A stretch of DNA of 60,000 nt. It comes from Botryllus schlosseri. Its lineage: Eukaryota. Below are positions 7,601 through 42,673 of the stretch, piece after piece; the stretch's first letter is position 1, and each line of letters starts with the position of its first letter. A program made the translations under genes and the position numbers. The stretch covers positions 21,950,001 through 22,010,000 of the forward strand of contig CM119371.1 of assembly GCA_051294905.1 (NCBI GenBank), read 5' to 3'. The notes under the pieces are model-generated. The model made no database searches. It saw nothing but the letters and a program-made list of their open reading frames with translations, and was not told where the DNA came from.

Positions 7601-7690
7601 ATAAGTTTGGTTTATAACTATATGGGGGGCACAAGACTAACGTTCTTTTTCGACTGTCCTTATTGTTGGGTCCATGTCGATGGCAGCCCT

Positions 7691-12645: not shown

Positions 12646-12718
12646 CGACTCCGAAGGGACTCGGACCCTCAATCTTCTGATCCGGAATCAGACGCCTTCT
12701 CCATTAGGCCACGAAGCC
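12646..12718 (-). tRNA. tRNA-Arg (anticodon CCG), variant or possible pseudogene
   Basis: Minus strand GGCTTCGTGGCCTAATGGAGAAGGCGTCTGATTCCGGATCAGAAGATTGAGGGTCCGAGTCCCTTCGGAGTCG (73 nt) folds as a cloverleaf with anticodon loop TTCCGGA. TTTT follows one base downstream. The T-loop reads TCCGA instead of TTCGA. Confidence 0.9.
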
Positions 12719-19041: not shown

Positions 19042-19431
19042 TAATGCAGATTGCAAAATCACAGCCGTAATAGTCTATTATATGGAATCGGTGTCTCGTG
19101 CACACCAAAGATTCTACTGACTGTACACAGGTGTGACGCCGAGTACCGCCTTGGCACACCAAAGATATTGCGCTAAACGTACCGGGATTCCAACCTGATA
19201 GACATTGTGCCGGGAATGTTTGTTGTTAGCGCGCGAACAATCAGCTGATCTCAGTGACGCCTGACTGAGCACAATTTACGCTGCCAGTGTGAACCTCAGG
19301 TTCGCTTCACTTAGTTTAGCTTAGTTTAGCGTAGCTTAGCTTATTCTCAGTGTACACCACAATATGGCGTGAAATACACAATATTGGATATTATCATATA
19401 GTCCCGCAAGCAGGTGTATCACATCTACAGT

Positions 19432-21658: not shown

Positions 21659-22283
21659 CATAGTGTCCTATATGGTGTCGACAAGCAAATCTCACGGCTC
21701 AGTGAAATTGTATCACGTCACAATTTCCATTTGGCTACAGGCAATTTGACGGTCATTTTTGACCGGCTTGCCGAGCATTAAATTTGGTAAAACGGGTATC
21801 AATCGAAGGCTGAGTCTGCACTGATTACGAAAATATAAATTTTATTCCGCTCATCGCCCTGGAACTCCCACAATCAGCCTCGAATTTTTCATTGTTATGG
21901 AGATTGGCATTGGGACGCAACAATGCTGTCTGGCGAAACGAGAGAGAAACTCATGACGCAACAATGCTGTCTGGCGATACGAGAGTGTAGCTCAAGAGAA
22001 AAAGGTCCAAAAAGCATTGTTGCGTCCCAATGCCAACCTCCACAACAATGAAAAATTCGAGGCTGATTGTGGGGGTTCCAGGACCGCAAGCGGAATAAAA
22101 TATATATTTTCGTAATCAGTGCAGCGTCAGCTTTCGATTGATACCCGTTTTACCAAATTTAATGCTCGGCAAGCCGGTCAAAAATGACCGTCAAATTGCC
22201 TGTAGCCAAATGGAAATTGTGACGTGATACAATTTCACTGAGTCGTGAGATTTGCTTGTGTCGACACCATATAGGTCACTATG
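21659..22283. mobile_element. Foldback MITE with CATAG termini and 7-bp TSD (P-element/Galileo-like)
   Basis: ~270-bp near-perfect arms catagtgtcctatatggtgtcgac / gtcgacaccatataggtcactatg. TSD CTGAAAT at 21652-21658 and 22284-22290. Confidence 0.85.
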
Positions 22284-22299
22284 CTGAAATCGTATTGTG

Positions 22300-22851
22300 G
22301 ATTGCCAACCCACGGATAGATTCGCAAGATCTGAGTCACGGATGAATGCACTGACAAACGTACTGAAGAGCCGGCTAAAAGCAGCAAACTTTGTAGTCCT
22401 AGAGCTGGCGATCCAAGCGTCCAAATTTGATGCATCTGGTCTTTATCGTAAGCTATTGATGCACTAATTCCGAAAATACAAATTAAAATCTCGTCAGGGC
22501 AATGTAACTGTTCCACAATTGCCGTTTAAGACCGACTGTTCTGAAAAGTGAGGGCGCCGCAGCAGCATGACCACAACAAGGACCAATTACGCGCAGCGAT
22601 TGTTCAGAACAATACTGATTCCCAGACTTTCACGACTATTTTGGGATGGTACCATTGCCTGGAAATATACTTTTATTGCGGAATCAGTGCGACACTAGCT
22701 TTCGATTAGGACCATACTTATCAAATTCCGACGCTTGGATCGCCAGCTATGGGACTATCAATTCTGCTGCTTTTAGCCGGCTCAACAGTTCGCTTCTTGG
22801 CGTATTCAATCGTGAGTCACGTGTTGCGAATCCATCCGTTGGTTAGCAATC
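22300..22851. mobile_element. Older foldback/long-TIR element
   Basis: gagccggctaaaagcagca...agctggcgatccaagcgtc (22368-22421) is inverted at 22730-22784. Partial copies near 15190-15290 and 43255-43345. Confidence 0.7.
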
Positions 22852-24179: not shown

Positions 24180-24604
24180 GCATGAATATTCACATCTTCA
24201 CACTCACTGATGAGTAAGTGACCAATTTTCCACGCTCTAAAACTTGAAGTTTCTTATTTGTATTCTAATGTGTTTTCGAGTGGCCGATCAAAGCCAAATC
24301 TTTTCCGTAGATCTGACATGCATAGTTTTTGGCTACAGTGTTTTTATTTCCATGTTATTTCAAGTTACCAAGCAGAGTAAATGCTTTTCAACAGATAAGA
24401 CACACATGGTTTTAGACTCAGGTATGTGTATGTCAATATATTTGCAAAGCACAAAGCCGGGTTAACGCTTTTCCGGAAATCTGACACACATAGTATTTGA
24501 CACCGATATGTGTAGTTTCATGTGTTTAACCAAGCCGGTAAACGATTTTCCGCAGATCTGACACTCATAGTTTTTTACTATAGTATGTACATTTCAATGT
24601 GTTT
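24180..24604 (-). pseudogene. Decayed C2H2 finger repeats downstream of the ZF ORF (likely now 3' UTR)
   Basis: The 84-bp periodic finger pattern (ttttccgcagatctgacactcatagtt) continues past the stop, with indels and lost Cys/His. Confidence 0.75.
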
Positions 24605-25741
24605 TCAGGTTGACGAGCCGCACAAGATATGACAATCGTGATTTTTGACTTCGTTATGCACTTTTCCATGTCTTTTCAAGTTACCAAGCTGGGTAAACGC
24701 TTTTCCACAAATCTGACACTCATATTTTTTGCCTCCAGTATGTGTATTACCATGTCTGGTCGAGTTACCAAGCCGAGTAAACGCTTTACCACAAATCCGA
24801 CATTCATACTTTTTGAGCCCGGTATGTCTTGTTAGATGTTCTTTCAAGTGCTGAAGCTTGGTAAAAGCTTTTCCGCAGATCTGACACTCATACTTTTTGA
24901 CTCCGGTATGTGCTGTTAGATGTTCTTTCAAGTGAGCAAGCTGGGTAAACGCTTTTCCACAGATCTGACACTCATAGTTTCTCAATCCAATATGTGTATG
25001 TCCATGTCTAGTCAAGTCACGAAGCCGAGTAAACGCTTTACCACAGATCTGACACACATAGTTTTTGATTCCGGTATGTGTTGTTAGATGTTCTTTCACG
25101 TGACCAGGCTGGGTAAATGCTTTTCCACAGATCGGACACTCATAGTTTCTCACTCCAGTATGTGTATGTCCATGTCTGGTCAAGTCACGAAGCCGAGTAA
25201 ACGCTTTGCCACAGATCTGACACACATAGTTTTTGATTCCAGTATGTTTAGTTCGATGTTCTTTCAAGTGAACAAGCTGGGTAAATGGTTTTCCACAGAT
25301 CTCACATGCATAGTTTTTGATTCCTGTATGTGTATGTTCATGTTTTTTCAAATCATAACGCCGGGTAAATGCTTTTCCGCAGATGTGACATTCATAGTTT
25401 GTGACTGCGGTATGTGTAATCCCATGTGTTTTCAAGTTACCGAGCTGACTAAATGCTTTTCCGCATATCTCACATTCATAATTTTTGACTCCAGTATGTG
25501 TATTTCCATGTTCTTTCAAGCTGCTATCCTGGGTAAACGCTTTTCCACAAAGTTCACATTCATACTTTTTGATTCCAGTATGTATATCTCCATGCCTTTT
25601 CAAGTCACCAAGCCGGGCAAACGCTTTTCCGCAGATCTCACATTCGGTATTCCTATATTCAAGGTGGAATTGAAGGTGAATTTTCAATCCGTCTGGAAAA
25701 TGGAAGCTCTTTCCACAGATCAAACACATTTTCTTTGTCAT
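24605..25741 (-). CDS. Tandem C2H2 zinc-finger protein, 13 intact fingers, no effector domain in ORF
   Basis: 378-aa ORF with 13 CxxCGKxFx8HxxxH units and TG(I/V)KNY-type linkers. In-frame TAA 9 nt upstream of the ATG. Candidate splice acceptor tttattag at 25837-25838. Confidence 0.92.
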   Translation of the reverse strand: MTKKMCLICGKSFHFPDGLKIHLQFHLEYRNTECEICGKAFARLGDLKRHGDIHTGIKKYECELCGKAFTQDSSLKEHGNTHTGVKNYECEICGKAFSQLGNLKTHGITHTAVTNYECHICGKAFTRRYDLKKHEHTHTGIKNYACEICGKPFTQLVHLKEHRTKHTGIKNYVCQICGKAFTRLRDLTRHGHTHTGVRNYECPICGKAFTQPGHVKEHLTTHTGIKNYVCQICGKAFTRLRDLTRHGHTHIGLRNYECQICGKAFTQLAHLKEHLTAHTGVKKYECQICGKAFTKLQHLKEHLTRHTGLKKYECRICGKAFTRLGNSTRHGNTHTGGKKYECQICGKAFTQLGNLKRHGKVHNEVKNHDCHILCGSST

Positions 25742-27189
25742 TCTTCTTGATTATCAGTAAATTACTTCTTCAAGTGCACACATCAAGCGATCGTTCTCTG
25801 ATTGAAGACGAATATATTCCAATAGCTTGAAATGAGCTAATAAATAGTATTAGAATATTTATATTATAGAAAATCTGTCAGAACATACAGATGATAACTT
25901 GCAATAATTATTAAGGTTGACAAATTACAACATTCAACCAATACAAGAATAAAAAACATGGAATATATATCAATAATAGGTATGTTGCATTTTTAGGCAT
26001 TGTAATGATCGGGAATAAGACAATTCAGACGAGTAGTTCCAAAAAGATGTTTTGCCAAATTTTAGAGATCACAAATACATTTTAGATTCCCTTTCGGAAA
26101 TTTCCTGCGGATAGAACATTTGGGACGTTCAGGTTTTAACTTGATCGTCCAATAGAATTCACTTCCAAGACACTGAACCATAAACTTACTCTCCGTTCAC
26201 CAAGTCCATCGGATGACAATTAGATTCCTAAGTGTTCCAGACCGCCTGTGACTCCATCAGCACGGTTCGGCTAGGCAATTAGGGACGGATATCTGATTCG
26301 GAGTAGGCAACTGGCCCTGGTCACGTTAAAAACCAGCACCTACGGCACTAGCCGAATAAGGATTGTGTCTGACAATATTTTGGAGATCAGTGGTTCTTCA
26401 ACGTTTTCCACCACGAGCCAAATTCAAGTGGCATTGCCATCTTGCGACCCAAGACTTGCTCATAGAAATGAATACTTTTCAAATGCTACTATGCTACATT
26501 TTTCACCAGCATGTATGAAATAGCGCAAGTGCAGACAACCAGCTGTACGCAACGGCGTTTTATGAAACATGATTCATCACATTGATTACAATACCAATTT
26601 CAGTAGTTGAAGTCACTTGTCATTCATGGTATTATTTGTGCATAACTCTCCTTTAATTGTATATTTATGGATCGCAAACTTTTTGTACTCACAAACTCCT
26701 TTCAGGGCATTTTCAAGATTAGGGTCATCTGAATCATTGAACGCGATCGATTTTACGGAACCAAGTACCGGAAAACAACATGCACCATTAGCAGGCAGAA
26801 TATTATCATTTTCATAACAAACACTGTGAATTTTTTTTCTGCCACCCCATTTTACCCATTACAACGGAGACTGATCATGCTAGAGTTGGAAGATGTTGAC
26901 GAAATATTGATGATTCAACCTCAGCTAGTAAGACGTGGCTATGTCTCATACCTTCTCCCCCTTCCTCGTCCAACACAGAAACACACATGATTCAAAAATA
27001 TGTGCATTCTCATGATCAGGCCACATTTTCATAACCGCTGTTCTGTGTTTCATTTCTATTGGCTGTTGGCTATTTTATGTGACAATTTAACGAACATAGA
27101 ATGTTGCCGACGCTGGATGATTAAAAAAGATCAGTATATGGGATGCATATTTTGTTAACGAAAACTCGCCTATATCTCTGTTGACTTCC

Positions 27190-27526
27190 CAGAGATATCA
27201 CAGACATGTCATACTTCTTACATCTGGCATGGATATTCCCACATGTTCTAAAAGTAAACGCATTTTCGCGGGTCTAGCATTCATAGTTTCCGACTCTGTT
27301 ATGTGTTTATCCGTGTATATTCAAGTCTCCAGCGTGAGCAACCTGTGTAGGCCTATGTCTATGCCTCTTCAAGTAAGCAAGCTGAATAAAAGTTTTATCG
27401 CGGATCTAACATTCGTAGTTTTTGACTCCAGTATGTGTATTTCCATGTATTTTCAATTGAACAAGTTGGCTTAACGACTTGCCACGGATTTGGCACTCAT
27501 AGTTATTGACTCAGGTGTGTGTATTT
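27190..27526 (-). pseudogene. Remnant of a third C2H2 zinc-finger paralog
   Basis: YECQIRGKSLSQLVQLKIHGNTHTGVKNYEC*IRDKTF..LKRHRH with stops. Cut at 27527 by a hAT terminus (caggggcgggcaa). Confidence 0.85.
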
Positions 27527-30155
27527 CAGGGGCGGGCAAAATACGGCCCGCGACGGGATTTTGTGCGGCCTGCGGACAGTTTTTGGTCTTACGTGATGAT
27601 GAGGACAGTGTCGCCGTCAACAGGCATTTAGGCGCAAACATTTTCAAGCATGAACCTTAGCACGACAAATCGACCTTCCAATACAGCTGATGTTCACTGC
27701 ATTGACGTAGCCCGGGCTATGGGGACCATGTTATTCCCCAATTTTTCGAAAATATTCGTAATATTTATAAATATTTATAAATAGTGGACTATTTACGGGC
27801 AGATGGATTCAAATTAAAAATATTTTGTTCGCTGTGCGCGGTTTAGTGTCTCTCCGTGCTTGTCCTGATTATGAGAATAAAGTATCCTAATCCTAATCGT
27901 GAACTTTGCGCCGAATCTATCACAGAGAGACCTCTAGTGAAAGTATTTATCTTAATTTCCAGTCAACATTTCACAGATGGTGACAAAAATTACAACATTA
28001 TCGATTCAAGTCAAAGAGAGCGTAAATGAACTTGCTTTATTTTTAGAGAACAGTTTCCTGAACGAGAAAACAAATGCTAAACTTCGTAAAACGTTGGCAA
28101 AGCGGAAAGTGACGAACTAATTTATTTTGCTATATTTATTAGCTCGAGGGCAAAAAGGACGATGCTTCGATTTTTGTAATTTTGTTAATGATAAAAAATA
28201 TACTATTTTTAGGCTAATTCATTCACGTGAGCTAGTGTCAATAGGAAACCAAAAATCAAAAAATAGCGCACTAAATACGCTCGATTTACAGAATTGATTC
28301 AAACTGTATCCGCAACTATGAAAGGATAATATTTTTTTTTGGTATGGCTTGAGGCCGTAGAGATGCATCAGTCTAGCTAGAGTTGCGGAGTAGGCTATTG
28401 CGTCATCATTAGCAACCTGCATATTCGCGCAAGGACATATCAAGACATATCAAAATTTTGCTAAACTTGCGACTGTGCGCCAAGACAGATTGACAGTGAT
28501 AACACCTATAATAAAAAATGGTCGATACATGTTTACAGAAACCGTCGACATTAATATGACTGCGCGGCTCCAGAATGACAGCAACGTATAGTCGTGCGGT
28601 ACAAATGCGACTCGAAGAGGAAAACAAGAAATGTCAAGAAATACTAATTTGGAATCCTTCGAGCAGCTTAGCGTCAATCTTGAACGGAGGTCAACCAAGT
28701 TGATGAAAGCAACGTGTACCCATACTAAACTTCATGAATAGTCTTAACATGTGTGGAATGAGTGTCCTAAATTTTTGAAGGCGTAATTTCCATCAGGAAA
28801 TCTGATCACGTGTATCCCATATATGGAAGTACCAATATTATTGACCAAATTCAAATGTAAACTTTACCAGTGTTACCAAGCAAAATATAGAATAAATACG
28901 AATTTGCAGATAGTTGAAACCAATTCATATTATGAAGCAGACATGGGTAATATCAACATTTATTCTAGACACAATAATAAATTTGGTTCAAATCGCAGAA
29001 GACGTACATTAAGGGGAGAAGTGAGCTGTCAGTGCACTACAAACACATCGTTGCTACCTATCGACAGAATACTACTACGGAATTCTACGAATACATACGA
29101 TGGAATCACATCGTTTATGTTCAGTTAATTTGTGACAAAACAGTTCAGGCTGAGTTAAAGCACGCATCACGATCGTCAAATGATTGGTTGGTATCGCAGG
29201 TCACACAAGTTGTTGACAGGGTCAAGCTGGGAAAAAAAGAATTGATTGATCAAGTTACAAACTTGTTCAACTTGTCCAGCACAATTTCGAAAGGCATAGA
29301 AGGGTTATTTTCAGATTTAAAGAATCAAGTTTGGAAAAAAACTGTTTCTAAAAATATCGAGCTGTCTGTATCATCTTTACAAGAGGATAAAACTACCAAC
29401 GGACTCAAAATACCATTTACTGGCTTTCATTCGCTTCAATAACAATGAGACATTGATATCTGAATAATCCCCCTCGTGACAGCAGTCACCAGTCACAGTA
29501 AGGTTGTTCCGGAAATAGCGTTTTTTTTTCAAACTTCACTCACATAGTGATGAAATTGTCAGGTTGCCTAACAACGTTAAACACCAAATTTCAGTCGATT
29601 CCAACCAGCAAAAGCTATGCAATCTGAAATAATCGACAATTCGGCCATTTTTAAAGTAATAGTATGGCCGATTTCGACACTTCGCCAAAACCAACATCAC
29701 GTTCAAAGCATGTCTGAATTTTCGCAATTTTTAACGTATATTGCACAAAATTTCCCCGATGATGATATGATCCCTAGAAAGAAATATCTCTCGATAAAAA
29801 ACTTAAAATTACACCTTTCTTCATGTTTGTTTTAATCAAGCCGATTAGCGTCTGCGCTGTACAACAGCAAGCGATCTCCTGCTTGGTTTGCCGCGGAATT
29901 AGATCTGTGCTGCACGTTAATACATCGGGGTCAACCGCAGGCCTGATCAATCACATATATAACACTCCATGTGCGCAAGATGTGATCCCTAGCCTAAACA
30001 CCACAGTCTCATCTCTAACAGGCCTAGTACGCACGACATAATCGTTGGCCTGAGCAATCGCATCTGTAATAGGCCTCGTGCGCAAGATGTCGCTGGCCTG
30101 AACTATCGCGTCGCCAGCCTCGCAGGCTTTGGCTACTATCTACTATTGTTTAGAG

Positions 30156-31185
30156 CAGGGGTCACCAACCCGGTGCCCGCGGGCACCAGGTAGCCCGCGA
30201 GGACTAAATGAGTAGCCCGCGAGCCCATTCTAAAAATAGGTGGAATAACCAATATTCGTCAGATTATTACCAATGAGATTTTAAATATATAGATCGATCG
30301 ATTCAGCTATTCTTGTTTAAAACACACTAACATGTCACTTACATATATAAACACTTATCTTCTATTACAATTAGTAATAGGCCTATATAGATATGTGATA
30401 GAATCACCATAAATTCATGGTACGGCGCATTGCCTATACAGGTGACATGACTGAATGCCCCACGGTCTTCTTGAAATGGTGGCGGTTCCGATATGATAGC
30501 TCGACGACCAGGACAATGCCACAGTAGTAAACAATATTACTATTCGGACTCAGATAGCTGTGAAGTACTAGCAGATTTTTAATATCTGTATACCCATTAC
30601 GTATTGCATCTTTTGACACAGCTTGTTTCTGTTACAATCAACGCAGTTTAATATACCATGTTTCTAACTTTCCGTAATCGTTGCTGCTGTCCGGTATTGT
30701 CATTTCTGGATGCTGAACCGTAGGAGATTGAAATTGTAACACTGCAAAATGACCCCCACCTCACCGTGCAGCAACGTTTGGTGCATTATTGATACGGAAA
30801 AGTACAGTGGTGTATGCGCAGCAGCTATGAAGGTTGCAAGCGTCTATTGTTCAACTTATCGTTGTGAATCAGCCTTTTCGGACATAAACTTCATCAAAAA
30901 CAAACACAAAACACGCTTAATTATTGCACATCTGGAACACTCACTCAGAATTGCAGTGTCAAGTTAAATACCAGAGTACAGCGCACTAGTTGATATCATA
31001 CAATGCCAGGCTTCCCATGGACTGCTATAGAAACAGATAACATGATGTCCAGTCCTGCCCAGTGCTATGAATATCAAAGCGGAAATTCAGTGTGGTACGG
31101 GTAAACGACGGGAGTAAATAGTAGCCCGCCGCTTCAATCATTACGTAAAAGTAGCCCTCGGTTGCAAAAAGGTTGGTGACCCCTG
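30156..31185 (+). mobile_element. Internally deleted hAT (Charlie/Buster) element carrying a hATC dimerisation-domain remnant
   Basis: TIR caggggtcaccaacc / ggttggtgacccctg. TSD GTTTAGAG. 30749-31020 encodes CSTYRCESAFSDINFIKNKHKTRL...QCQASH. Empty site in the inverted homolog near 32515-32525. Confidence 0.92.
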
Positions 31186-31290
31186 GTTTAGAGACAATGC
31201 CGTTAAGTGTATAATGGTTGGCAATGATTATGTCATCATTGTTCAACAATGACATCGCAAAACAGAATGTTATCGAATACTAAAATATTA

Positions 31291-33182
31291 CCGTAATTTT
31301 ATAAGTATAGTACGCCCCCATGTATAATAGGCACCCTTAAAATGGCATGCAAATTCTGGGAAAAAGCCTGTACCCATGTATAGTACGCACTAGGGATGGT
31401 GTGAACCTCTGAAAGGTTCAGGTTCGTGTGAAAGCGAACCTTTTGGAAAGGTTCTGTGTGAACCAGAACGTGAACCTCATGACGTCACGTGACGTCATAT
31501 TGCTAATTCCAACCCTACATTTCAGTGAAGTGATAGCCTATATTAATGTACACTATATCTAGCGACGACTCGGGCTACATAATGCCACAATGCTGAAGTA
31601 CATATTGACGTTTTAAACGTCACCAGATGTATCAACTGGGCAATTAATTTATATCATCATCCCAGAAAATCAATATCTTCCATCGCTTTGCCAACAATTT
31701 CGACAAGGACTTGCAAGGGAATATATGCTTACGCCTTAACGGTCAAGGCCTGACCGTACAATGTATTCGGCGTTTGAGTATTGCTACGGTGATGGTGAAG
31801 CAGAGGGTTTCTATACTTGCTACCGGTATTAACCCATTAACAAGTTATAGAGCAGTAGCCAACACCCCAATCGCACGGATTTGGATTTTATGATACAATA
31901 AACACATGAAATTAAGATTGACCCCGTACGTCTGCTAGATTATTTACATCAGACAAAGACATCAATTTCGTCAATTGGTTGAATAAGCATCATTCGCTGA
32001 CTATCGATACACGTAGTGTATTTCGCCTTTGATTTTGTGAGATTGCGGGTCAAGCTCACAGCAGAGAGTAACTAAATATTCACAAACGGAAAGCTGGATA
32101 TTTCGATCAAACGTTTGTAACAAAGCAAGTAAAATTTTTGAGATGGTCAAGGTACATGCTTCTTGTTTAGTGTTGATTTTTTATGCTGACAACGCCATGC
32201 ATAGAATTTCCCGCAGTTGAAATGCAATAAATTTCAACCAAAGATGTTATGATGAAGTGAAAATCGTAATATATGAAAAAGGTTCACAGTGCAGAACCTA
32301 CCGAGGTTCGTTTGTGAACGCGAACCTCTAAATATCGGAGGTTCACACACAGAACGCGAACGTGAACCTCACGTTCACACCATCCCTAGTACGCACCCTG
32401 CATTCGCAGTACATGAATAGCTGTGTTTTAGTACACGATGGTGTTCTGTTTTGCGATGTCACTGTCAAACAATCATGACATAACCATCGCTAATCATTAT
32501 GCAATTAACGGCATTGTCTCTAAACGATAGTAGAGAGCAGCCAAAGCCTGCGAGGCTGGCGACGGGATAGTTCGGGCCAGCGACATGACGTCTTGCGCAC
32601 GAGGCCTATTACAGATGCGATTGCTAATCATTATACAAGTAACGGTATTGCCTCTATATGATCGTAGATAGCAGCCAAAGCCTGCGAGGCCGGCGACGCG
32701 ACATCTCGCGCACGAGGTCAGATGCCATTGCTCAGGCCAACGGTTATGTCGTGCAGACCACGGCTGTTGGAGGTGCGACTGATTACGCAAGCGATTGTAT
32801 TCTGCGCACATGGCCTGTCGATGAATTAGCAAGGATTGCCGTGCGCGCGTTCAGCAATCAATGAATGGATGACCTCATTTCGCTCGCGTCTAAACGGCAA
32901 ACCAGCTCAGCAGGATATTGCGTGCTGTGCAGACGATACTCTCGTTAATTGACAACACGCTTTTTGCTAATTGGTAGCGCGTTACACTGATAATACGAAT
33001 TACTGGGCACGATGGCTGAAAGTGATGCGCGATTGGAAACAAACATGAAGAAAGGTGTGATTTCAAGTTTTTTATCGAGGGAGATTTTTTTCAAGCGTGT
33101 TGTTCCCATGTATAATACGCACTCCCCGATTTTAGGGCAAAAAATCGTGAAAATTTTGAGGATTATACATGGAAAATTACGG
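31291..33182. mobile_element. Non-autonomous Tc1/mariner-superfamily (pogo/Tigger-like) element
   Basis: TA|CCGTAATTTT ... AAAATTACGG|TA with subterminal atgtataata.gcac repeats. An inverted partial copy of its interior lies at ~29820-31270. Confidence 0.8.
31391..32388. mobile_element. Non-autonomous hAT (Ac-type) element nested in the pogo-like element
   Basis: TIR TAGGGATGGTGTGAAC / GTTCACACCATCCCTA. TSD GTACGCAC (nTnnnnAn) at 31383-31390 and 32389-32396. Subterminal GAACC/GGTTC repeats. Confidence 0.92.
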
Positions 33183-33228
33183 TACTTTTCATGTACTGCG
33201 AATACACGGTGCGTACTATACATGGGTA

Positions 33229-34662
33229 CAGAGATGTCTTTTCGACATGTTTTGATCTTGACAAGGGCCTATGGTGGGGTTTGGATGAAGTCATTGCCAG
33301 TAAACGAAAAAAAAAAGATTTGTCACGGATTATATGGAAATTGGTCCACTTCATTGAAATAGACATGTTAAAACGATGGCGAGATAATTATCAAATAGAG
33401 TACTTTACACACTGAAATTAACGACCACTAACAGGACAAAAACTGATAATAAGCACGTAAAATACGGGTAAATACATTCCTGAAGTGATAGTCGTTATCT
33501 ATATTCTTTGTTGGTCCGATGTAGATTTCTTCACGATACAATGTGATATTATATGATATTTTATTATTTGCTCTGCAGCACTCCTATAGTACTATCACAG
33601 GCGAATTATAAGACTAATGGGCATCGTGACAGATCCTGTTCATATCAAATGTTATCGTCCTCTTTTCATGTCATCCTCCATATTCGGTTACTGCCATCCA
33701 ATTGTATCCATGTATCGTGGTGAAAGACCAATGCTTTTTATTACTATATGACAAGGAGGTCCAGATGATATCAAGAGACCCGAAAATGACAAATGTGCTC
33801 TGTAAGCTCATTGGGTTACCATTTGGTTTCCCTGTATCTTGCAAAGTTTCGAGCAAATAAAAAGCTTCAGTATCAACGCTTATGTAAAGTTTCAGAAATG
33901 TTGTTTTCAGCTCATAAATACCATTCTGAATTGCAATCAGCAGCATTTTAACGCCCCGGATCAGTCAATGTGAAGTAGCGGAGAAATATTCGAACACTGA
34001 GCTGCTGAGGAATGCAACTGATGTCTCAGTGGATGTGATTTTGGGAATGACGACTTTGCAATCAGTAAACAATTTGAATCAAGGCAGAGATACATCGGTA
34101 TGCCTTGCATAAATGGGAGAGATTTCGTGAAATCTAACCTGGTCAGACAAAAAAATACTCCTAAATATGACTATCACTTGAGGAATATATTTACCTGTAT
34201 TTCAACTTCTTACCAATTCATTTCCTTTTCGTGGTCGTTAATTTCAGTGTGTAAAGTACTCTATTAGAATATTATCTCACCGTCGTTTTAACATGTCTAT
34301 TTCAATGAAGTGGACCAATTTCCAGGTAATCTGTGTCATATCTTTTTTTTTTTCATTTACTGGTGATGTATTCATCCAAACCCCACCATAGGCCCTTGTC
34401 AGGATCAAAACAAGTGGAAAAGACATCCCTGCAACTTCAGGCATACCTGGAACATGATTTTTGTTCATGTATGTACGATGAAATTGGTCACAGTACGGTA
34501 AATAATATTATTTCAAAAATGACTACAATTTTAATTTGAGTGACCTCGGATTCTACTGGTTGGAATTGAGTCAAATTTGGTCTACAACGTTTTTTAGGTA
34601 TCCTGACGATTTGACAACCAAGCCGATGAAATTTGAAAAAAAAGTTTTGTTGAACACCACTA
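33229..34662. mobile_element. Long-TIR foldback element (left arm truncated)
   Basis: 33229-33500 is the reverse complement of ~34165-34431. The right arm continues to ...ttgaacaccacta (34662). Arm copies at 14770-14910 plus 16520-16910, and at 54960-55190. Confidence 0.75.
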
Positions 34663-35951
34663 ATGTTCGTTTTCTAATGCAATACGGCATAAATTTGTTA
34701 AAATTGATCTGGAACAAAGCTACTCTCGCACTGACTACGAAAAGATAAATTATGATCTGACAGGGCACTGCAACTACCCCAAACTGCCCTTGAGGCCAAG
34801 CCACAGAGATAGTTGCAAATACAGTGCCTACACTGCTCTTGCTGCATTATTGGTTGGCCTGCCTTGGGCCTTGTGAACAAAAGTTGAGCATGATGAAGAA
34901 AATTTGCCCTGGGATAAAATCACCTTACCTCTCGCTTCACTATAACTATTATGATGGATTTATCGTCGCCACTGATATCAAGTAAGCTCTTATTCAATAC
35001 CATTATTCAAATACATTACGAAATAGCTTACGATATCACACATCATTACTGGGAAAAACGTTTAATGCTACGAATAGAGTCTGCATGTAATCAGAGACGT
35101 TTTTTTGTTCCACGCTGACATTGCTGTAACAGTAAATTTTTCGCTCATGGCATGCACACTTGTACATATACTGGACTTTGTGCAACGCGGTTCTAGAGCA
35201 AATTGTCTGTAAGTACTGAAAGCTCGTTGGATGTTGCGAGTAGGCTACACAGTTTCAACCAAGATGACGTTGCAGTCTACAGGTGCCAGAAAAATAAAAT
35301 GCTCCACATATGTATCTACCATATGTATATTAGGCCTACTAGACAGCAATGTTGCAAAATCACTTCAGAGAAAATGAATTACTGCTGCCCAAAAGCCTAG
35401 TCAATTCGCAATGGTACCAAAATTACCAGCATACCATAAAACAATTCAAAGAGGCCAAACGTTTTTGACAATGAACATTAACAAGACAGAGTGGCATTGC
35501 AACCTAACTTATGTTCATGTGTAGTCTTTAGGCTACTAAGGGTTCTTACGTCCAACATGAAGTCAGAGTTGACAATTTTGACTGACCATTTACCATAGAT
35601 ATCTTATTGACTTCAACAGCTATTGAAGGACATTACGTTAAAATATTCATTATTGATCTCGATGCTTTATGCCGAGTACTTCATGTCCCCATATCCAGCC
35701 CGCCGACTAGAGAAGTCGCTCGCCCCTAGCCTAGGGCATGATGACTTATTGGCTACAGTTCAAAATTAATTATGAAAGAAATATCCAACCAGCAACAAAA
35801 TGTTCAAGTAATGGAAAGAATCTGACATAATCATGCAAGTGATAATGAAAATGTCAAGTCATTTGCTAAGCCACGGTTTAGCCCTCTATTTCGATAGATT
35901 AGGTAATCTGAAGATTCTTATAGAAAACTTTGACGCACAGATCATCTAGTG

Positions 35952-37208
35952 CAGTGGTTCTTAACCTTTTTCCTTCCAGCGCCCCCTTTCAAAAATTATC
36001 GTGCTCCAGCGCCCCCCCCCTAACTTCATATTGTAAGGAATGTAATAAAGACAATGAGTAAATAAAGGACACGTAATTAACAATTAAACATATTCGGGCG
36101 TGCCCGCAGGTACAATTATTCGTTACCAGGGCCGTAACAGCACTTCGTCAGCCCCCCCCCCCAAAAAAAAAGCGTTGGTCGTGGGCCCCCATCGGGTGAT
36201 AAACCAAACTTCCGGGGGACTTCACTCCCAGACCCCCATTAGGCTGTCTGCTATTTGCTGATAGCCTATTAGGTATGTACATTGGGTGTCCATTTACTGA
36301 GGCAGCTATTCTCGCCTATTCGCGCGAAGTGCGAAAAATTTCACTAATTAATGATTGAATTGGTCAATATCATCGGGAATTGCATGTAATTCGAGATCAA
36401 TTTTTATCCTCTCTCTGCTCACGTAAACACATTTACCGGTAGAGCTGAGTGAGGTGCAATGTTCCCTCTAAGCTGCGCACGTGCGCAGTGCTGACACGGT
36501 CTCTGCGCACAGAAAATCTACGTTGCGCACAACAAATCCGGAGTTATTACATTTTTTAGTCGTTACGCACTGTTGTCCAAGTGTCAGCGCAGTGAGTTGT
36601 TGAGTGTGCGCAGACTCATCAAAATTTTAAGCGAACATTGTGAGGTTTCTTGGAAACTGTAGGGCCCGTTACTAATAATTAAACATATTCGGGCGGGCGA
36701 ACCCGTTGGTATGACTTCGTTGCATGATGTTATTTCGTGACCCCCTGTCTGCGATATCAAAAAATATAGAATCGCTCAACGGGGATATCGCCCAACAGGA
36801 ATATCACTGTCGCCCAATCGTACTAAACTAAAAGACGCACACGATTTCAGATTGGTATTTCTTCAATGACATATAATTTTCCCTGCCAGATGGAATTCGT
36901 CTTCTGGGGTTCAGATTGCCAAGACAGGAACATTCGGTGTCAGTCATTTAGGCGCCCATGGACAATTAAACCTATATGTATTTTGAAGGCTATATGTAAA
37001 GAAGTTTACGGTGTTAATTTGCTCTGAATACTCATTAAGGATATGTCCTATCACCACACCATCTACTGCGAAGCCATTTTTCTTCAGCGCCCCCCATACC
37101 GCCCCCCTGAGCCCAGCGCCCCCCATATTGCCCCCTGAGTGTTTCCGCCCCCCTTCAAGATCGCCAGCGCCCCCTAGGGGGCGCTGGGGGCAAGGTTAAG
37201 AACCACTG
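35952..37208. mobile_element. Non-autonomous hAT (Buster-type) element
   Basis: TIR cagtggttcttaacctt / aaggttaagaaccactg. TSD ATCTAGTG / ATCCAGTG. Subterminal gcgccccc repeats. Confidence 0.85.
36457..36640. mobile_element. ~190-bp hAT MITE, copy 3 (nested)
   Basis: caatgttccctctaagctgcgc... / ...gcgaacattg. Confidence 0.8.
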
Positions 37209-39274
37209 ATCCAGTGCCTAATCCTTGGATTAAAATTAAACGTCGGTGGATCTCCAGGGTCTGTAGCATATTTTCCGTTTATTCATCAATCGTAAGAATC
37301 ACCAATACAAACCATGCTTATATAAATTACTGGCTTTTCGAAATGAGCCAATAGAAGTAGAGCTAACGACCTTTAAATATCCACAGCTAACCAACTAAAA
37401 CACAACTAACAAGATTCCATTTCAAAGCGACTAGCCTACCGTAACTGGTTTTCATTTCATCAGAATTGGATCAGCTTTCCACATGAACCTCAGTACAAGT
37501 ACATAGCCTAATGTGCATTTTAAAATCTTAAGCGCACTTATTCGAACAGATTTACGGCTATTGCTATGCTTGGACAATTTGGACAGGAAATAAACTAGAA
37601 AAACTGCTTCATGGACACTTGTACATGTATTAAATGTCTCAATATCTCTAGTCTAGCAGTAGTTGATTACAGTTCTGACTCCACTAGTCGGCTACTATAT
37701 GCTGTGCCCTGAATCATTGAAGGCGAGCGATTTAACGGAATCAAGCACTAAAAAACAATTTGTGTCACTGAAAGGTAGAATTATATTCTTTATATCACAC
37801 CCTCAGTGCTTTTTTTTGTTCTGCGACCTCATTTTACCCATTACGGGAATGAGTTGAAAGATATTAACAAATGCCGATGATTTTGGCAGAAACTGATCAT
37901 GATAGAGTTGGAAGATGTTAACGTTATATCGTGTTTTAACCTTAAAAAGTCGGACTTCACTCTCTCTCGCAATATCTCTCTTTGGACCGAAACACACATG
38001 TTACAAAAATCTGTACATATTCATGATCCCGGATCAGGCTACATTTTCGCAACCTCTCTTATTGGCTATTGGCCTATTAAATGAAGCAGAGTTGCAATCA
38101 TCAATTGAGTTGCACACTGTGAACAAATTTGTAATGATCTTGAGATTTTTTTATGGAAACCGTAAATATCCACTGGAAAGCTCCAAGTTGAAATTCATTT
38201 AAGTTAATTGAACTGCTTTGATAGGATAGGTCCTAGTATCCATCCACCAAATATGCATATGCATAAGGATACCTTGGCATTATTACCGCCTCTTTCACAA
38301 TTCAAACATGAATCCTCTTCCCTTCAGGTCGTCTTTGTAAGGATGCTGCATAATGCTGCAATTAGGAGATATTAACAGCGAAAAGCTGGAAGAATACAAT
38401 ATTAGAGTATGAGAAGTTTCCAATTGTAGCGCTATGATTAATTACTAAACTGAACGAGACGGGATGTCATGAAGGAGTGAAAATCTCAACAAGCTCTATG
38501 AAATGGATGGCAGAAACGAGCACATATTTACAAGATACCCACAAACAACACTACAACTTTAAACGAAATTGAAACTGATATGCACAGACTGCTAATTACC
38601 AGAGAATGTGGCAATGGATGATGTATTCGCAGTTTAAAAGGTTAGTATAATAAATTATTACATTGGATCATCACACTGTAATACAAAAATTCAAACATCC
38701 ACACCACACGAAACTGCTTCCGAATAACAAACACTGCGCAATTCACCATTCCGTAAGTGTTCTATTGAAGCTGATTGGTGCAATGCAAGCCAAATTTTTC
38801 AGTTAGTAAGCATACATTTCAATTTAAATGTGAAAACAACAGGAGAGATACTCTCATTCACATAATGAAACAAGTGAGTAAAAGATGAGCGAGAAAAGAA
38901 TGAATTGGGAAACCTGTGACAGCAATAAATAGAGACGTGGGAGAGGTTAAGTGACACGATGACAAAGGCATGCAACCATTTCTTAAATACGAGCCCGGAA
39001 ATGACGCACCCCAAAAAGTTGCTACACATACACATGAACGTTTCCAACCATTTAGTACGAATGTATGAAACAGTTCTATGGCTGACAATTTATTCAATAT
39101 AAAATGTTACCGATCCTTTATGATTCAAACAGTCCACTACATGGGGTGCGTCAGGTGGTTAAGCAAACTAGCTGTTCACTATAATGACTTTCCAGAGACA
39201 TCACAGACACACAGTACTTGTTACCTCTGGCATGAATATACTCGCATGTTTTCAAATTAACACTGTTGCATTGT

Positions 39275-39531
39275 AAGTACATGCTTTTCCACAGATTTAG
39301 CACTCGTAGGTTCCGACTCTGCTATGTGTATTCCTATGTCTTTTCAAGTGACTGAGCCAGGTAAACGCTATTCTACGGGCCTGACACTCAGTTTTTCACT
39401 GTATCATGTGTACTTCCATGTGTTTTCAACTGACCAAGCCGGCTAAACGATTATCCACAGATCTGACATGCATATTCTTTGCCTCCAGTATGTATATTTG
39501 CATGTTTTTTCAAGCTTCCGAACAGTGTAAA
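39275..39531 (-). pseudogene. Decayed fingers 14-17 downstream of the second ZF ORF
   Basis: After GK* the frame continues FTLFGSLKKHANIHTGGKEYACQICG*SFSRLGQLKTHGSTH, then frameshifts. Confidence 0.8.
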
Positions 39532-40662
39532 TTATTTTCCGCAGATCTGACACTCATAGTTTTTACGCCCAGTATGTGTATTTCCATGTGCTTTCAAGTC
39601 ACCAAGTTGGCTAAACGCTTTTCCGCAGATTTCACATCGATAGCTTTTGACTCCAGTATGTATATTTGCATGTCTTTTCAAGTTACCAAGTAGGGTAAAC
39701 GCTTTACCGCAGACCTGACACTCATAGTTTTTACCTCCAACATGTGCATTTCCATGTACTTTCAAGACACCAAGTCGGGTAAACGCTTTTCCGCAGATCT
39801 GACATTCATATTGCTTGACTCCGGTATGTGTGGGAACATGTGTTTTCAAGTGGCCTGGCAGCCTGAACGCTTTTCCGCAGATTTGACATAGATAGTTTTT
39901 GACTCCAGTATGTGTATATCCATGTACTTTCAAGACACCAAGTCGGGTAAACGCTTTTCCGCAGATCTGACATTCATATTGCTTGACTCCGGTATGTGTG
40001 GGAACATGTGTTTTCAAGTGGCCTGGCAGCCTGAACGCTTTTCCGCAGATTTGACATAGATAGTTTTTGACTCCAGTATGTGTATTTCCATGTGATTTCA
40101 AGTCACCAAGCCGCGTGAACGCTTTGCCGCAGATCTGACATGCATAGCTTTTAACTTCGGTATGTATATGTCTATGTCTTTTCAGATAATAAAACTGGCT
40201 AAACGCTTTTCCGCAAATCTGACAAGAATAGTTTCTGACTCCGGTATGTGTATTTCCATGTGATTTCAAGTTACCAAGCCGGTTAAACCCTTTTCCACAG
40301 ATCTGACACTCATAGCATTTTACTCCAGTATGTGTATTTTCATGTCTCCTAAAGTCACTAAGCCGGGTAAACGCTTTTCCACAGATCTCACACTCATAGT
40401 TTTTTACTCCTCCAGTATGTGTATTTTCATGTCTTTTAAAGTCACCAAGCAGGGTGAACGCTTTTCCACAGATCTCACACTCGTAGTTTTCTACTCCAGT
40501 ATGTGTATTTTCATGTCTTTTAAAGTCACCAAGCCGGGTAAATGCTTTTCCACAGATCTCACATTCATTATTTCTTTCTTCAAGGTGTAATTGCAGGTGA
40601 CTTTTCAATCTGTCATGATAATGGAAGTTCTTTCCACAGATCCAACACATATCCCTTGTCAT
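39532..40662 (-). CDS. Tandem C2H2 zinc-finger protein paralog, 13 intact fingers, no effector domain in ORF
   Basis: 376-aa ORF with 13 complete fingers and TGVKNY-type linkers. N-terminus and leader are homologous to 24605-25741. In-frame TAA 9 nt upstream. Candidate acceptor at 40754-40755. Confidence 0.92.
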   Translation of the reverse strand: MTRDMCWICGKNFHYHDRLKSHLQLHLEERNNECEICGKAFTRLGDFKRHENTHTGVENYECEICGKAFTLLGDFKRHENTHTGGVKNYECEICGKAFTRLSDFRRHENTHTGVKCYECQICGKGFNRLGNLKSHGNTHTGVRNYSCQICGKAFSQFYYLKRHRHIHTEVKSYACQICGKAFTRLGDLKSHGNTHTGVKNYLCQICGKAFRLPGHLKTHVPTHTGVKQYECQICGKAFTRLGVLKVHGYTHTGVKNYLCQICGKAFRLPGHLKTHVPTHTGVKQYECQICGKAFTRLGVLKVHGNAHVGGKNYECQVCGKAFTLLGNLKRHANIHTGVKSYRCEICGKAFSQLGDLKAHGNTHTGRKNYECQICGK

Positions 40663-41236
40663 TATTCTGGATTATCCTTGAACTACTTCTTCGAGTACAC
40701 ACATCAACCGTTTCGTGATTGAAAATAAATATTCAACAATAGCTTTGAATGAACTATCACAACGTATCAGAATCCTTTTATAGCAATCCAGTCTGAAGCA
40801 CAAAGAAAAAAGCGGTTAAGTTTGAAAAATTACAAAATCCAACACCTCACTTTCACAGAACTTTGTCTTAAAAATGAACAGAAGAAAAGTAAAATGCTCA
40901 ACATATGTACCCTATCTATAATATGTAGGCCTATATATTGACAGACAGCAATATTGCGGAATCACTAAAGACAAAATAAATGACTGCCGACCAATAGTCA
41001 ATATGCTAAGCGATCGAAAATTACCAGCATACAGTAACAACAATTCAACAAGGGTTGTTCATATGTTTGGCTTGTAGTCATCACGACCTAGAATGCAATG
41101 GCCACAATTTTCAATTTATTATGAAAGAAATATCCAACCAATCCACAAGCTCAAGCGTTAATTGGTCTTCACCATCTCCAAACACCAAAAATACTACACT
41201 ATCTTGGCAGACAGTAGATATCATATTGATTTAGAA

Positions 41237-42608
41237 CAGTGGTTCTCAACCTTTTTTGACACGCGCCCCCCTTGGAGATGGTCAAAAAAATCGCGCCCCC
41301 CCTGACACCCCTTGCATTTATCGTCATGTCAAAAAGAGCACATCATCTAATACAGAGGTGGGCAACGTTTTTGATAATCATGGCCGCATTTCGATTACTT
41401 ATGTAGCCTAAGGCCGCATTCCAGGGCATATAGCCGCAATGAACGATCTGGACGCAAAATTCCTATGGTAAACTGTCCATATCCATTCCCGATGAACTCC
41501 AGACTATTTTACTTTTCACAATGGCCTATTGTACGCACCAAAATCGCGAGTGGCAATGTTATGAATAGTTGCCGGGAGGTGCATATTGTCGCGCTGAGCG
41601 CGAAAATTTTTCAGGGCCGCGAACGAATTGTTATTTCTTGCCAATTCCCATTCCGGCTCAGATTAAGAAGGGCGCTACTGCATTAAAATCGAACAATGAA
41701 GTCTTGTTGAATTGCGCGGAGGGCGGAGAAAATTTCCAGATTAATTAAAATCTCTCGAAAATGCGGGAGTGAATTCGTAATTGCAATTTGCATGTCTACG
41801 GCCGCCAACACATACTAATTGAATTAGGCGTCGACGGCCGCTCAAATTCCCTTCTACGGCCGCAGGCTGCCCACCTCTGATCTAATAGTATACATAAGGT
41901 ATATCTTACGCCAATTTTGAACCTGCATTCCGGTTGTTGAGTCTTTTACATTGCTGACAAATTTCTCCAAACTTTGTTTGAAAATAACAAAAAAAAACAT
42001 TGAAAAAGACATCCATTAATTAATTGCAAGGTAGGTCACCCTGAGACTAATCCTGATGCTGGTAGTGAGTACAGAGAGCAAGGCATCGTTCTGTCCTACC
42101 AGGCTAAATTTGATCAGTTTTGGAAATTAATTAAATTGTGTTGATTTATAGCCTAATTGAGGGCGAAACCGGGCAACCTATGTTGCATCTAAGTCTGTTT
42201 TAGGCAGTGCAGTTCCCACCTACTAACAAGAGCTGACCAGCGCGACAAGCTTTAGACTACTGTCAAAGCTATGAAGCAATGAATGACTTACACGTCGGAA
42301 TTGCTCTCTATATCTCCAAAGAATTTCAAAAATTTGCTCAAATGAAGTTGAAATCAGACTATACTCCGTTGAGCGCGGTTGCTAGAGTTTGTATTTTGCA
42401 AGCTTTCTTGAATATGGAATAAATTTCATCTTCATTAATCGTCTTCTCATAATGGATGTGAAACACATGTTCAGACACGTACAATTTATACTGACTTTGT
42501 CAATTTCTCGCGCCCCCCCCTATACTGACTTCGTCAATTTCTCGCGCCCCCCCTGAGAGCCTCCCGCGCCCCCCAAGGGGGGCGCGCCCCCCAGGTTGAG
42601 AACCCCTG
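41237..42608. mobile_element. Non-autonomous hAT (Buster-type) element
   Basis: TIR cagtggttctcaacct / aggttgagaacccctg. TSD ATTTAGAA at 41229-41236 and 42609-42616. Confidence 0.9.
41353..41879. mobile_element. Nested hAT MITE (same family as 56245-56931)
   Basis: TIR cagaggtgggca / tgcccacctctg. TSD ATCTAATA. ggccgca repeats. Confidence 0.9.
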
Positions 42609-42673
42609 ATTTAGAACAAAATTAATCCAGATCATGTGCTTGTGCAAAAACAGGCTGAACAATCGATATAGAC

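Follow-up and report, generated by a model that had tools for sequence, protein, structure and literature searches.

C2H2 zinc-finger genes that encode arrays without an effector domain have been described in several animals. In Hemiptera, the ZF271-like (APEZ) genes are described as finger arrays lacking KRAB or any other domain, which lie in tandem clusters of a few genes together with pseudogenes, have expanded at the species level and are mostly expressed; the same paper calls for the partners of finger-only families to be identified (PMC6444547). Among the poly-ZF proteins of Ciona, BTB was present in just 7 of 103, and KRAB or SCAN in none (PMC2604467). An auxiliary domain was absent from 53 of 131 human proteins studied (PMC5131825), cofactor docking on a finger array has been reported (PMC9531945), and dozens of uncharacterised zinc-finger families have been mentioned (PMC10547256). 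We analyzed a window of 60,000 nucleotides from Botryllus schlosseri (contig CM119371.1, positions 21,950,001 to 22,010,000), in which a preliminary description had reported a cluster of effector-less zinc-finger genes. The locus bears on the mode of action of finger-only arrays and on a possible role of zinc fingers in the control of transposons in invertebrate chordates.

Two genes, A and B, were present on the reverse strand. The coding sequence of A, including the stop, lies at 39532..40662 (376 aa, codons 39535-40662), and that of B at 24605..25741 (378 aa, codons 24608-25741). Both encode 13 complete C2H2 fingers in tandem at 28-residue spacing, and both are poly-ZF genes in the sense of at least five such fingers. 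An atypical finger 1 is followed by complete fingers 2-13; A has its stop within finger 14, and finger 14 of B is degenerate. Fingers 8-9 and 10-11 of A arose by a recent two-finger duplication (167 identical bases at a period of 168), and fingers 7-8 of B are similar to 9-10. As had been described, each frame starts five residues ahead of finger 1 (first Cys at residue 6), with an in-frame stop three codons upstream of the ATG. The reported lack of KRAB, ZAD, SCAN and BTB domains was also confirmed: among the best Pfam families listed (25 of 31 for A, 25 of 40 for B) there were solely zinc-finger-type models and weak cross-hits, and none of the four domains matched A's leader or the 121 other frames of at least 72 aa in the window. 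A PRDM9-like array was rejected, with no SET, KRAB or SSXRD Pfam match and fingers just 0.74-0.93 identical to their own consensus. These results suggest that A and B are small clustered genes, probably with finger-only products.

The two paralogs had been called intact. They are indeed 13-finger open reading frames, but both are truncated, and decayed fingers continue past the stops. The rest of A's finger 14 and fingers 15-17 lie at 39270..39531 on the reverse strand (10 lesions in four units), and the decayed, frameshifted fingers of B lie at 24255..24604 on the same strand (21 lesions in five units, finger 14 counted). A contig of run X5, from another sample and another study, showed 0 differences to 38673-39564, A's stops included; X5 was treated as DNA because it follows the DNA run in all 30 bins. 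The last three to four decayed fingers of a third copy, pseudogene C, were found at 27253..27527 (reverse strand, 20 lesions in four units), its 5' side cut by the end of a repeated element. A repeat nest at 27526..35285 takes the place of C's acceptor, leader and first fingers. This dead copy, first described as a remnant, is more than that, as its upstream pieces lie 8-10 kb off. The 3' flank of C (26729..27260, reverse strand) is homologous to that of A (37709-39280), and two orphan pieces of C's upstream intron on the reverse strand within 35288..35808 (35288-35454 and 35750-35808) are homologous to A's 40883-41053 and 41099-41155, with 82% identity for the first. The 5' end of duplication unit C at 37193..37706 is homologous to that of unit A at 47996..48540 (both reverse strand; score 501 versus at most 95 in 60 shuffles); the latter is non-coding, with many frame-breaking gaps relative to the C copy. 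The A/C tandem junction is at about 37707. With C's upstream pieces so distant, the duplication units extend to 48540, beyond the region initially described.

An older duplication gave rise to B and to the ancestor of A and C, and a younger tandem duplication (48540 to 37709) produced A and C themselves. Deletion and the insertion of repeats subsequently removed the 5' part of C. In A and B, stops cut off the last fingers, but 13 were retained under purifying selection, and fingers were gained via two-finger duplications. The original notion of a cluster, two open reading frames plus a dead copy in birth-and-death evolution, is supported. Its setting in transposon debris was likewise borne out by Harbinger transposase and MADF fragments (Pfam), many bins in which the summed contig depth is very high, and a nest of non-autonomous DNA elements with 8-bp direct repeat flanks in A's upstream region (41229..42616), which from this 8-bp flanking repeat we take to be of hAT type. 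In the repeat nest at 27526..35285, a fragment of a hAT dimerisation domain at 30740-30964 was weak (E 0.008, below Pfam's cut-off).

Protein collections yielded best identities of 48%, 58% (short stretches) and 51% across three length classes, and only generic arrays among the 120 matches listed per class from 8000 candidates scored. A metagenome scan gave 112 pattern matches and one locus, an unrelated TGE-linker protein, and an atlas search with B residues 1-90 returned generic C2H2 clusters. These searches agree with the earlier proposal and support a family that would be lineage-restricted, as judged by sequence; the contig depth summed across the arrays may point to tens of relatives.

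The linkers had been given as TG(V/I)KNY rather than TGEKPY. This was correct as a consensus (TGVKNY), with the usual Glu or Pro in 0 of 24 fingers (2-13 of both genes) and canonical TGEKPY not encountered in A or B, but exact TG(V/I)KN occurred in just 6 of the 24. Arg at helix +9 was also found in 0 of 24, whereas 1111 background fingers had linker Glu in 58%, linker Pro in 74% and +9 Arg in 50%. Linker length was retained, as were Thr, Gly and Lys/Arg (21, 21 and 21 of 24 fingers). In protein collections, linkers of the family type numbered 40 of 3385 (360 proteins listed, generic arrays) and, across 386 proteins that have at least four linkers each, at most two of six in a single protein. 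Residues typical of base reading (Arg, Gln, Asp, His, Asn, Glu) occupy helix positions -1, 3 and 6.

Finger 1 had been described as atypical and conserved; the former was confirmed, but special conservation found no support. It falls in the 1st percentile of 4618 background fingers, differs from every array finger and is richer in hydrophobic residues. Between A and B, its 31 codons carry 12.5 non-synonymous versus 2.5 synonymous differences (dN 0.19, dS 0.15; dN/dS ~1.3). Structure prediction for B fingers 1-3 from an alignment of 34 rows gave three ordinary fingers (pLDDT 83) with no extra strand at finger 1, resembling DNA-bound arrays (TM 0.85 to 2i13). An all-beta model from a two-sequence alignment, with low N-terminal confidence, was discarded as an artefact. 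First fingers of other proteins made up 5 of the 84 top matches to finger 1, versus 256 of 4242 overall.

No lesion was found in 24 coding fingers, whereas 13 dead fingers about as close to the consensus carried 51. The core class had a dN/dS of 0.10 (p 2e-12), and a value of 0 was obtained for Gly, Lys and Phe, residues that played no part in the choice of fingers. The A and B frames are under purifying selection, and the 31 lesions in nine tail units versus none in the coding fingers indicate that selection went on long after truncation. The scaffold had been described as constant beside a differing helix; its constancy is confined to seven core positions (Cys, Cys, Gly, Lys, Phe, His, His), and at several positions outside the contacts variation is as rapid as at the contacts themselves. 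As a class, contact residues did change faster than other variable sites (dN/dS 1.27-1.70 versus 0.73-0.83; p <=0.005, 8 of 8 trees), on finger trees that are poorly supported and ignore conversion. The contacts (-1, 2, 3, 6) are not clearly above a dN/dS of 1 (p 0.014-0.28 on eight trees, <0.05 on one and 0.05 on another); helix +6 reached 2.2 (uncorrected p ~0.03). The linker (0.8) and many non-core sites (0.73) lie near 1, so constraint is loose.

Transcription was examined over 20 kb in runs chosen by species label. In single-cell RNA run X22, sense-strand reads fell on both genes and on the unique 3' flank of A, although in-array reads may stem from paralogs (mapping at 90% likeness, duplicates kept). 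The near-single-copy region downstream of A at 37940..39273 on the reverse strand had sense-strand reads (X22 depth 5.09/0 and 2.33/0) and is a probable 3' UTR, or else reflects internal priming at A-runs (38152, 37817). Sense reads were also present upstream of B (25934-26600, 5.82/0), and X22 reads were absent over C's 3' flank (26601-27267). Bulk run X24 had low depth and no consistent strand (A 0.13/0.58, 0.20/0.40).

The predicted 5' leader of A's coding exon (40663..40792, reverse strand) starts at 40792, the first exon base behind the best acceptor, which has a pyrimidine fraction of 0.85, a branch-point motif at -27 and an AG-free stretch of 51 nt. The leader holds a 10-codon upstream open reading frame in frame with A (40672-40704). 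That of B (25742..25874, reverse strand; first exon base 25874) holds an in-frame one of nine codons (25751-25783, two stops). These acceptors lie in matching places, ~130 nt upstream of the ATG, and run into stops, so finger-only proteins are likely. Above B, a candidate 315-nt intron (25875..26189, reverse strand) has a consensus donor at 26189, and the candidate exon above it has stops in all three frames. A's leader was provisionally rejected as a decayed effector or spacer: it is open for 39 codons in A's frame, yet without a Pfam match. Compared with B, it shows 10 synonymous and 17 non-synonymous differences, with mismatches of 7/10/11 by codon position and no clear codon bias, and it explains none of the best 150 hits in 1.84 billion proteins (nine of them inspected). 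Homology between the upstream DNA of B and A did not exceed shuffles, save for one 28-nt patch around the branch-point motif. No splice joint at A or B was among the 15 joints listed for the 20 kb mapped (852 more were not listed), where transposon reads dominated, and so a weak AG that precedes the ATG by 4 nt may still serve as acceptor.

This AG is central to an alternative that we consider unlikely, in which an upstream exon with an unnamed short effector (FiNZ- or KRAB-like) is spliced in frame to it, the leader being an intron, and one distant exon possibly serves all three copies, each of them being an alternative last exon. Both genes retain the AG, and its phase is identical in the two. 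Of the AGs scored, it is the sole in-frame route among 11 in A and one of two such routes among 10 in B. KZNF and FiNZ genes as a rule have two exons arranged in this way (PMC10547256), and no first exon was found for A. Its pyrimidine tract is poor, however (0.35 in A and 0.45 in B, versus the 0.85 of A's upstream acceptor), and it stands behind several nearer AGs. Only ~855 nt separate C's unit from B's exon, where the sole consensus donor would add at most eight residues; the upstream blocks common to A and C are non-coding; and the X22-silent 3' flank of C, on the path of any read-through transcript, argues weakly in the same direction. Loss of C-terminal fingers from both genes, dN/dS near 1 outside the core, low RNA depth and the upstream in-frame reading frame ahead of each ATG would also suit recently relaxed, dying duplicates of little function on C's path. 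Decay concentrated in the tails, with intact coding fingers, and the sense-strand reads in X22 make this very unlikely.

With linker Glu, linker Pro and +9 Arg replaced, the arrays could conceivably bind RNA or proteins instead of double-stranded DNA, and TGEKP, which A and B lack, is said to predict DNA binding (PMC11327367). We regard this as extremely improbable: Thr, Gly and Lys/Arg, named as capping and phosphate-contact residues (PMC11327367), are kept, the spacing is standard, and the base-reading positions belong to the fastest-changing class. The preliminary description suggested a possible transposon-recognition family with partners recruited through finger 1; in its fuller form this is an arms race in which finger 1 recruits a repressor. 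Contact dN/dS point estimates above 1 on all eight trees, the value at +6 and the hydrophobic finger 1 are in its favor; across animals, the number of ZNFs is correlated with that of retroelements irrespective of the accessory domain (PMC10547256), and lone N-terminal fingers can serve as interaction modules (PMC12774644). Only one tree, however, separates the contact dN/dS from 1 at p < 0.05, and finger-only expansions in Hemiptera do not follow repeat content (PMC6444547). Recruitment of partners through finger 1 finds no backing in its divergence, its ordinary fold or its lack of likeness to first fingers elsewhere. Transposon recognition drew none from the motifs predicted for A and B, which were not enriched in window repeats: out of 34 sub-arrays, none scored above more than 27 of the 30 shuffles, in a crude, low-power test based on a recognition code and on repeats defined within the window only. 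Position among transposons tells location only, and we judge the arms-race account quite unlikely. Read with this code, B's contact residues predict CpG-rich sites. A bolder version is similarly doubtful: a sizeable, probably ascidian-restricted finger-only family with a rebuilt finger joint (linker Glu, Pro and +9 Arg lost together), whose contacts would be under positive selection against CpG-rich ends of DNA transposons, silencing or stabilising them by a cofactor docked on the fingers, and so providing KRAB-free transposon control in an invertebrate chordate.

We consider it reasonably probable that A and B are live genes from a tandem C2H2 family that is lineage-restricted, encodes fingers only and is shaped by birth and death of genes and fingers, with a single coding exon and a DNA-wrapping array that acts without a finger-1 module. 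Each gene would have one coding exon, spliced in cis or by leader trans-splicing ~130 nt upstream of the ATG, and the weak upstream reading frame may damp translation. Sub-arrays of fingers would wrap long DNA sites in the usual major-groove mode, with weaker finger-to-finger locking given a linker without Glu and Pro, and specificity would drift with the changing contact residues. The proteins may act by occupancy or by cofactors docking on the whole array; by analogy, repeats are plausible targets. The linker signature eases genome-wide collection and the proteins are small (376-378 aa), which makes the family a usable test case.

The A/B/C cluster is a new local instance of a kind known from many animals, zinc-finger clusters with fast turnover, and brings a further undescribed family to a familiar pattern. 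The lack of an effector is less surprising than first implied, as the finger-only clusters of Hemiptera (PMC6444547) and the Ciona poly-ZFs (PMC2604467) precede it. As far as the predicted 5' structure allows, A, B and C share with ZF271-like (APEZ) genes an array as sole domain and tandem clusters with pseudogenes, but they belong to another lineage without sign of orthology and have a TGVKNY-type linker, a distinct finger 1 and a predicted single coding exon. Insect matches were at generic identity and without the linker type, so the likeness is an analogy and not membership. With poly-ZF genes, including those of Ciona, they share 28-residue tandem fingers, lineage-specific duplication and fast contact positions (PMC2604467, PMC10547256), but differ in lacking linker Glu/Pro and +9 Arg throughout and in a contact dN/dS not clearly above 1. 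The FiNZ-ZNF genes of cyprinid fish are likewise lineage-specific and clustered in transposon-rich DNA, with the array on one exon. Those genes have a 28-residue acidic domain on an upstream exon and knock-down evidence of transposon repression (PMC10547256), whereas no such exon was found for A or B: at both genes the best acceptors run into stops, and the exon proposed for B is closed, although a weak in-frame AG is present. Clusters, finger gain and loss, and pseudogenes recall the KRAB-ZFPs, in which loss of the effector domain is recurrent (PMC2443715), but A and B have no TGEKPY linker and no KRAB in the frames searched, and their generic identity does not mark them as tetrapod-type genes by sequence. 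The N-terminal ZAD of ZAD-ZNF proteins, a four-Cys dimerisation domain, was not encountered among the Pfam families listed for A and B or in the 121 other frames. Dipteran CGx-Phi dimerising C2H2 proteins also combine an atypical first finger with the lack of a named effector, but their domains need an extra strand with the CGx-Phi motif before an isolated finger (PMC12774644). In A and B, by contrast, five residues precede the first Cys of finger 1, the motif is missing, the model shows no extra strand and the spacing to the array is normal.

A six-frame scan revealed C2H2 motifs on the minus strand of the window only, in two arrays. Gene A (40662 to 39535, stop at 39532-39534) encodes 376 aa and gene B (25741 to 24608, stop at 24605-24607) encodes 378 aa; each contains 13 complete fingers, and the two proteins are 65% identical. 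A third set of decayed fingers at ~27253-27527 belongs to C, a pseudogene and broken, younger duplicate of A. The two intact paralogs and one remnant of the preliminary description were thus recovered, but decayed fingers (tails) were also present downstream of the stop in both A and B. A contig from X5, a run treated as DNA whose sample and study are distinct from those of the DNA run X1, matched 38673-39564 without differences, indicating that the stops of A are not assembly errors. Both ORFs begin 5 residues ahead of finger 1, the first finger, as previously described: residue 6 is the first Cys in each, and three codons upstream of each ATG there is an in-frame stop. The 25 best Pfam families listed per gene were all of finger type, in agreement with the earlier statement that no KRAB, ZAD, SCAN, or BTB domain is encoded in the ORFs, and the same four domains were absent from the 121 other open frames of the window.

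The finger consensus was tiled over the DNA, and stops, frameshifts, and missing core residues (Cys, Gly, Lys, Phe, or His) were scored as lesions. The 24 coding fingers carried 0 lesions, whereas 13 dead units carried 51 (A tail, 10; B tail, 21; C, 20). A codon model was fitted to 23 distinct fingers, excluding both fingers 1 as well as A10, an exact duplicate. The core class had a dN/dS of 0.10 (p = 2e-12); linkers had 0.81, other sites 0.73, and the contacts at helix -1, 2, 3, and 6 had 1.52 (p = 0.058 against 1; 1.27-1.70 across 8 trees). These contacts, the helix positions named for dN/dS analysis in the preliminary description, lay above other variable sites on 8/8 trees (p <= 0.005), but above 1 at p < 0.05 on only 1/8. 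Because the trees are weak and finger-to-finger conversion lies outside the model, positive selection at the contacts is at most suggested.

Four pieces flanking A matched segments near C in conserved order (47996-48540 with 37193-37706, 41099-41155 with 35750-35808, 40883-41053 with 35288-35454, and 37709-39280 with 26729-27260). At ~37707, the 3' end of the unit carrying A adjoins the 5' end of the unit carrying C, indicating a tandem duplication. After the duplication, C lost its 5' part (acceptor, leader, and first fingers), and ~7.7 kb of repeats now occupy that place. The 3' flank of B was 69% identical to that of A, A and C shared 71-76% identity downstream and 82% in an intron piece, and the upstream DNA of B did not align with that of A above shuffles. 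Judged from this flank identity and the unalignable upstream DNA, B is older than the A/C split. Within the arrays, fingers 8-9 and 10-11 of A shared 167 identical bases, and fingers 7-8 of B resembled 9-10 (95% and 90%). Recognition-helix residues do differ between the paralogs, as reported earlier, but fingers 1 are the only clear A-B counterparts, so the differences partly reflect independent finger shuffling.

The linker consensus is TGVKNY, and the described departure from TGEKPY was evident throughout: linker Glu, linker Pro, and helix +9 Arg each occurred in 0/24 fingers, compared with 58%, 74%, and 50% of 1111 background fingers. Linker Thr, Gly, and Lys/Arg were each found in 21/24. 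Linker Glu pairs with helix +9 Arg, and since both are absent, the pair has been lost on both sides. Among 386 retrieved proteins containing at least four linkers, none had such linkers in the majority. With a linker dN/dS of ~0.8, the most suitable reading of the signature is descent from a single founder finger with propagation through internal duplication, rather than tight selection on the motif. According to PMC11327367, Thr/Gly provide capping, Lys makes a backbone contact, and TGEKP is predictive of DNA binding. We infer that the A and B arrays may bind DNA with looser finger joints.

Upstream of the ATG of A, the best of 11 AGs scored was 40792, with a pyrimidine fraction of 0.85, a branch-point motif at -27, and a 51-nt AG-free stretch; B has a fair acceptor at the matching place, 25874. 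A-B similarity stops at these acceptors, save for a 28-nt patch around the branch-point motif. If the transcripts are spliced there, in-frame fusion to an upstream exon is therefore impossible for both genes. An upstream exon encodes the FiNZ domain, according to a passage of PMC10547256. A less probable route here would join a distant exon in frame through an AG located 4 nt ahead of the ATG, which A and B both retain in identical phase and whose pyrimidine tract is poor. B has a single consensus donor, 26189, behind an exon closed in all frames; joining this donor to the same AG would add <= 8 residues. None of the 15 joints displayed of 867 was a splice joint at A or B. Under the preferred splicing at 40792 and 25874, the unpaired acceptor could take a spliced leader if the host is an ascidian; a passage of PMC1488885 reports trans-splicing in ~half of Ciona genes.

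The predicted leader of A, between acceptor and ATG, is open for 39 codons in the gene's frame, but it was provisionally rejected as coding sequence because Pfam and protein searches found no homolog and no clear codon bias was seen. In both genes, the first ATG of the predicted exon starts a short ORF of 9-10 codons that shares the gene's reading frame; the context of this ATG is weaker than that of the main ATG. These minus-strand ORFs (40672-40704 in A, 25751-25783 in B) share a purine-rich GAAGAAGTA stretch of a splicing-enhancer motif type, which could be such an enhancer and not a conserved peptide. The segment at 43500-44700, upstream of A, is CpG-rich (observed/expected 1.35-1.48); it resembled a promoter, but by X1 depth it is mostly repeated DNA.

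Finger 1 ranked at the 1st percentile when scored against 4618 background fingers and is therefore atypical, as claimed earlier, but its special conservation was not borne out. Across its 31 codons, A and B were separated by 12.5 non-synonymous and 2.5 synonymous differences (dN 0.19, dS 0.15); with two sequences, the likeness is explained by shared descent. The finger retains the zinc ligands and Phe/Leu core and was modeled as an ordinary finger lacking an extra strand (pLDDT 83), and a three-finger model resembled DNA-bound arrays. In dipteran N-terminal fingers, a strand drives dimerisation (passages of PMC12774644), whereas finger 1 was modeled without such a strand. First fingers of other proteins were not enriched among its best matches in two comparisons (5/84 vs 256/4242 overall; 2/34 vs 135/1725). 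Finger arrays as such can serve as docking sites for cofactors: Rhino docks on the first finger array of Kipferl (PMC9531945), and the title of PDB entry 9hjt and a citation in PMC13538652 indicate a zinc-finger coregulator complex. Partner recruitment through finger 1, as proposed in the preliminary description, is an idea against which sequence and models provide some evidence.

In the single-cell RNA run X22, of which about 3 in 100 was read, depths (minus-strand-RNA orientation/opposite) were 1.35/0.23 and 1.63/0.10 over B, 5.82/0 directly upstream of B, 0.68/0 and 0.86/0 over A, 5.09/0 and 2.33/0 over the near-unique 3' flank of A, and 0/0 over the 3' flank of C. In the bulk run X24, of which about 6 in 100 was read, depths were low, at 0.68/0.07 and 0.33/0.28 over B, 0.13/0.58 and 0.20/0.40 over A, and 0.09/0 and 0/0 over the flank of A, with inconsistent strand over A and B. 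Expression of A and B is thus supported by one run, X22. Summed X1 contig depth over the arrays was 2279-10888 vs 55-157 for single contigs in unique DNA; this is not a copy number and at most hints at further relatives.

The cluster is indeed embedded in transposon debris, as first described: 31% of the window matches elsewhere within it, many bins had very high depth, and Harbinger transposase and MADF fragments were present. A DDE_Tnp_4 transposase fragment (16964-17287, plus strand, E 1e-9) and a MADF/Myb-SANT fragment (18832-19074, minus strand, E 2e-8) are oriented towards each other, which we take to be a decayed Harbinger two-gene layout. Two overlapping plus-strand open frames of 113 and 153 aa (28787-29439), inside the insertion splitting C, had no Pfam or Atlas matches; the bin 28602-29268 was low-copy repeated in X1, and its X22 reads were oriented as for a minus-strand RNA (3.33/0.15). 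The plus-strand open frame at 7214-7597 may, by resemblance, be a hAT-type transposase fragment, for which Pfam gave no support. Long inverted repeats with 69-95% arms (2116-2801, 21659-22283, 22300-22851, 33229-34431, and 51078-52440, the last with 42-bp sub-repeats in both arms) are typical of fold-back or MITE elements. An 800-bp element occurs in two opposite copies with 91% identity (8700-9484 and 55234-56021), and a 143-bp unit is repeated in ~4 tandem copies (53311-53871, 87%). A tRNA-Arg(CCG) call (12646-12718, minus strand; Rfam 58.7 bits, ARAGORN) may represent a genuine tRNA gene or the head of a SINE.

This repeat-rich setting indicates location, not targets. The zinc-finger recognition code predicted CpG-rich sites for the B fingers; top matches of the predicted motifs in repeats showed no excess over shuffled motifs in 34 sub-array tests, a crude test that refutes nothing. 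Transposon targeting by A and B would be an idea drawn from analogy.

Our literature search, which covered main texts and mostly openly accessible papers, found no published description of the A/B family; gene lists in supplements of genome papers could name A or B. ZNF and retroelement numbers are linked across animals (passages of PMC10547256), and across tunicates no count varies more than that of zf-C2H2 (PMC8122590). Table 1 of PMC2604467 lists BTB in 7/103 Ciona poly-ZF proteins and KRAB and SCAN in 0. Two further papers report recurrent effector loss in mammals (PMC2443715) and 53/131 proteins without an auxiliary domain in a human survey (PMC5131825). The cluster works like other lineage-specific poly-ZF clusters. 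By analogy, its design is closest to the finger-only ZF271-like families of milkweed bug and aphid, without membership by descent. Passages of PMC6444547 describe those families as consisting of the array and no other domain, as forming clusters in which 4-8 genes stand alongside pseudogenes, and as independent of repeat content. What is distinctive to the A/B cluster is its rebuilt linker together with a minimal product that is probably finger-only.
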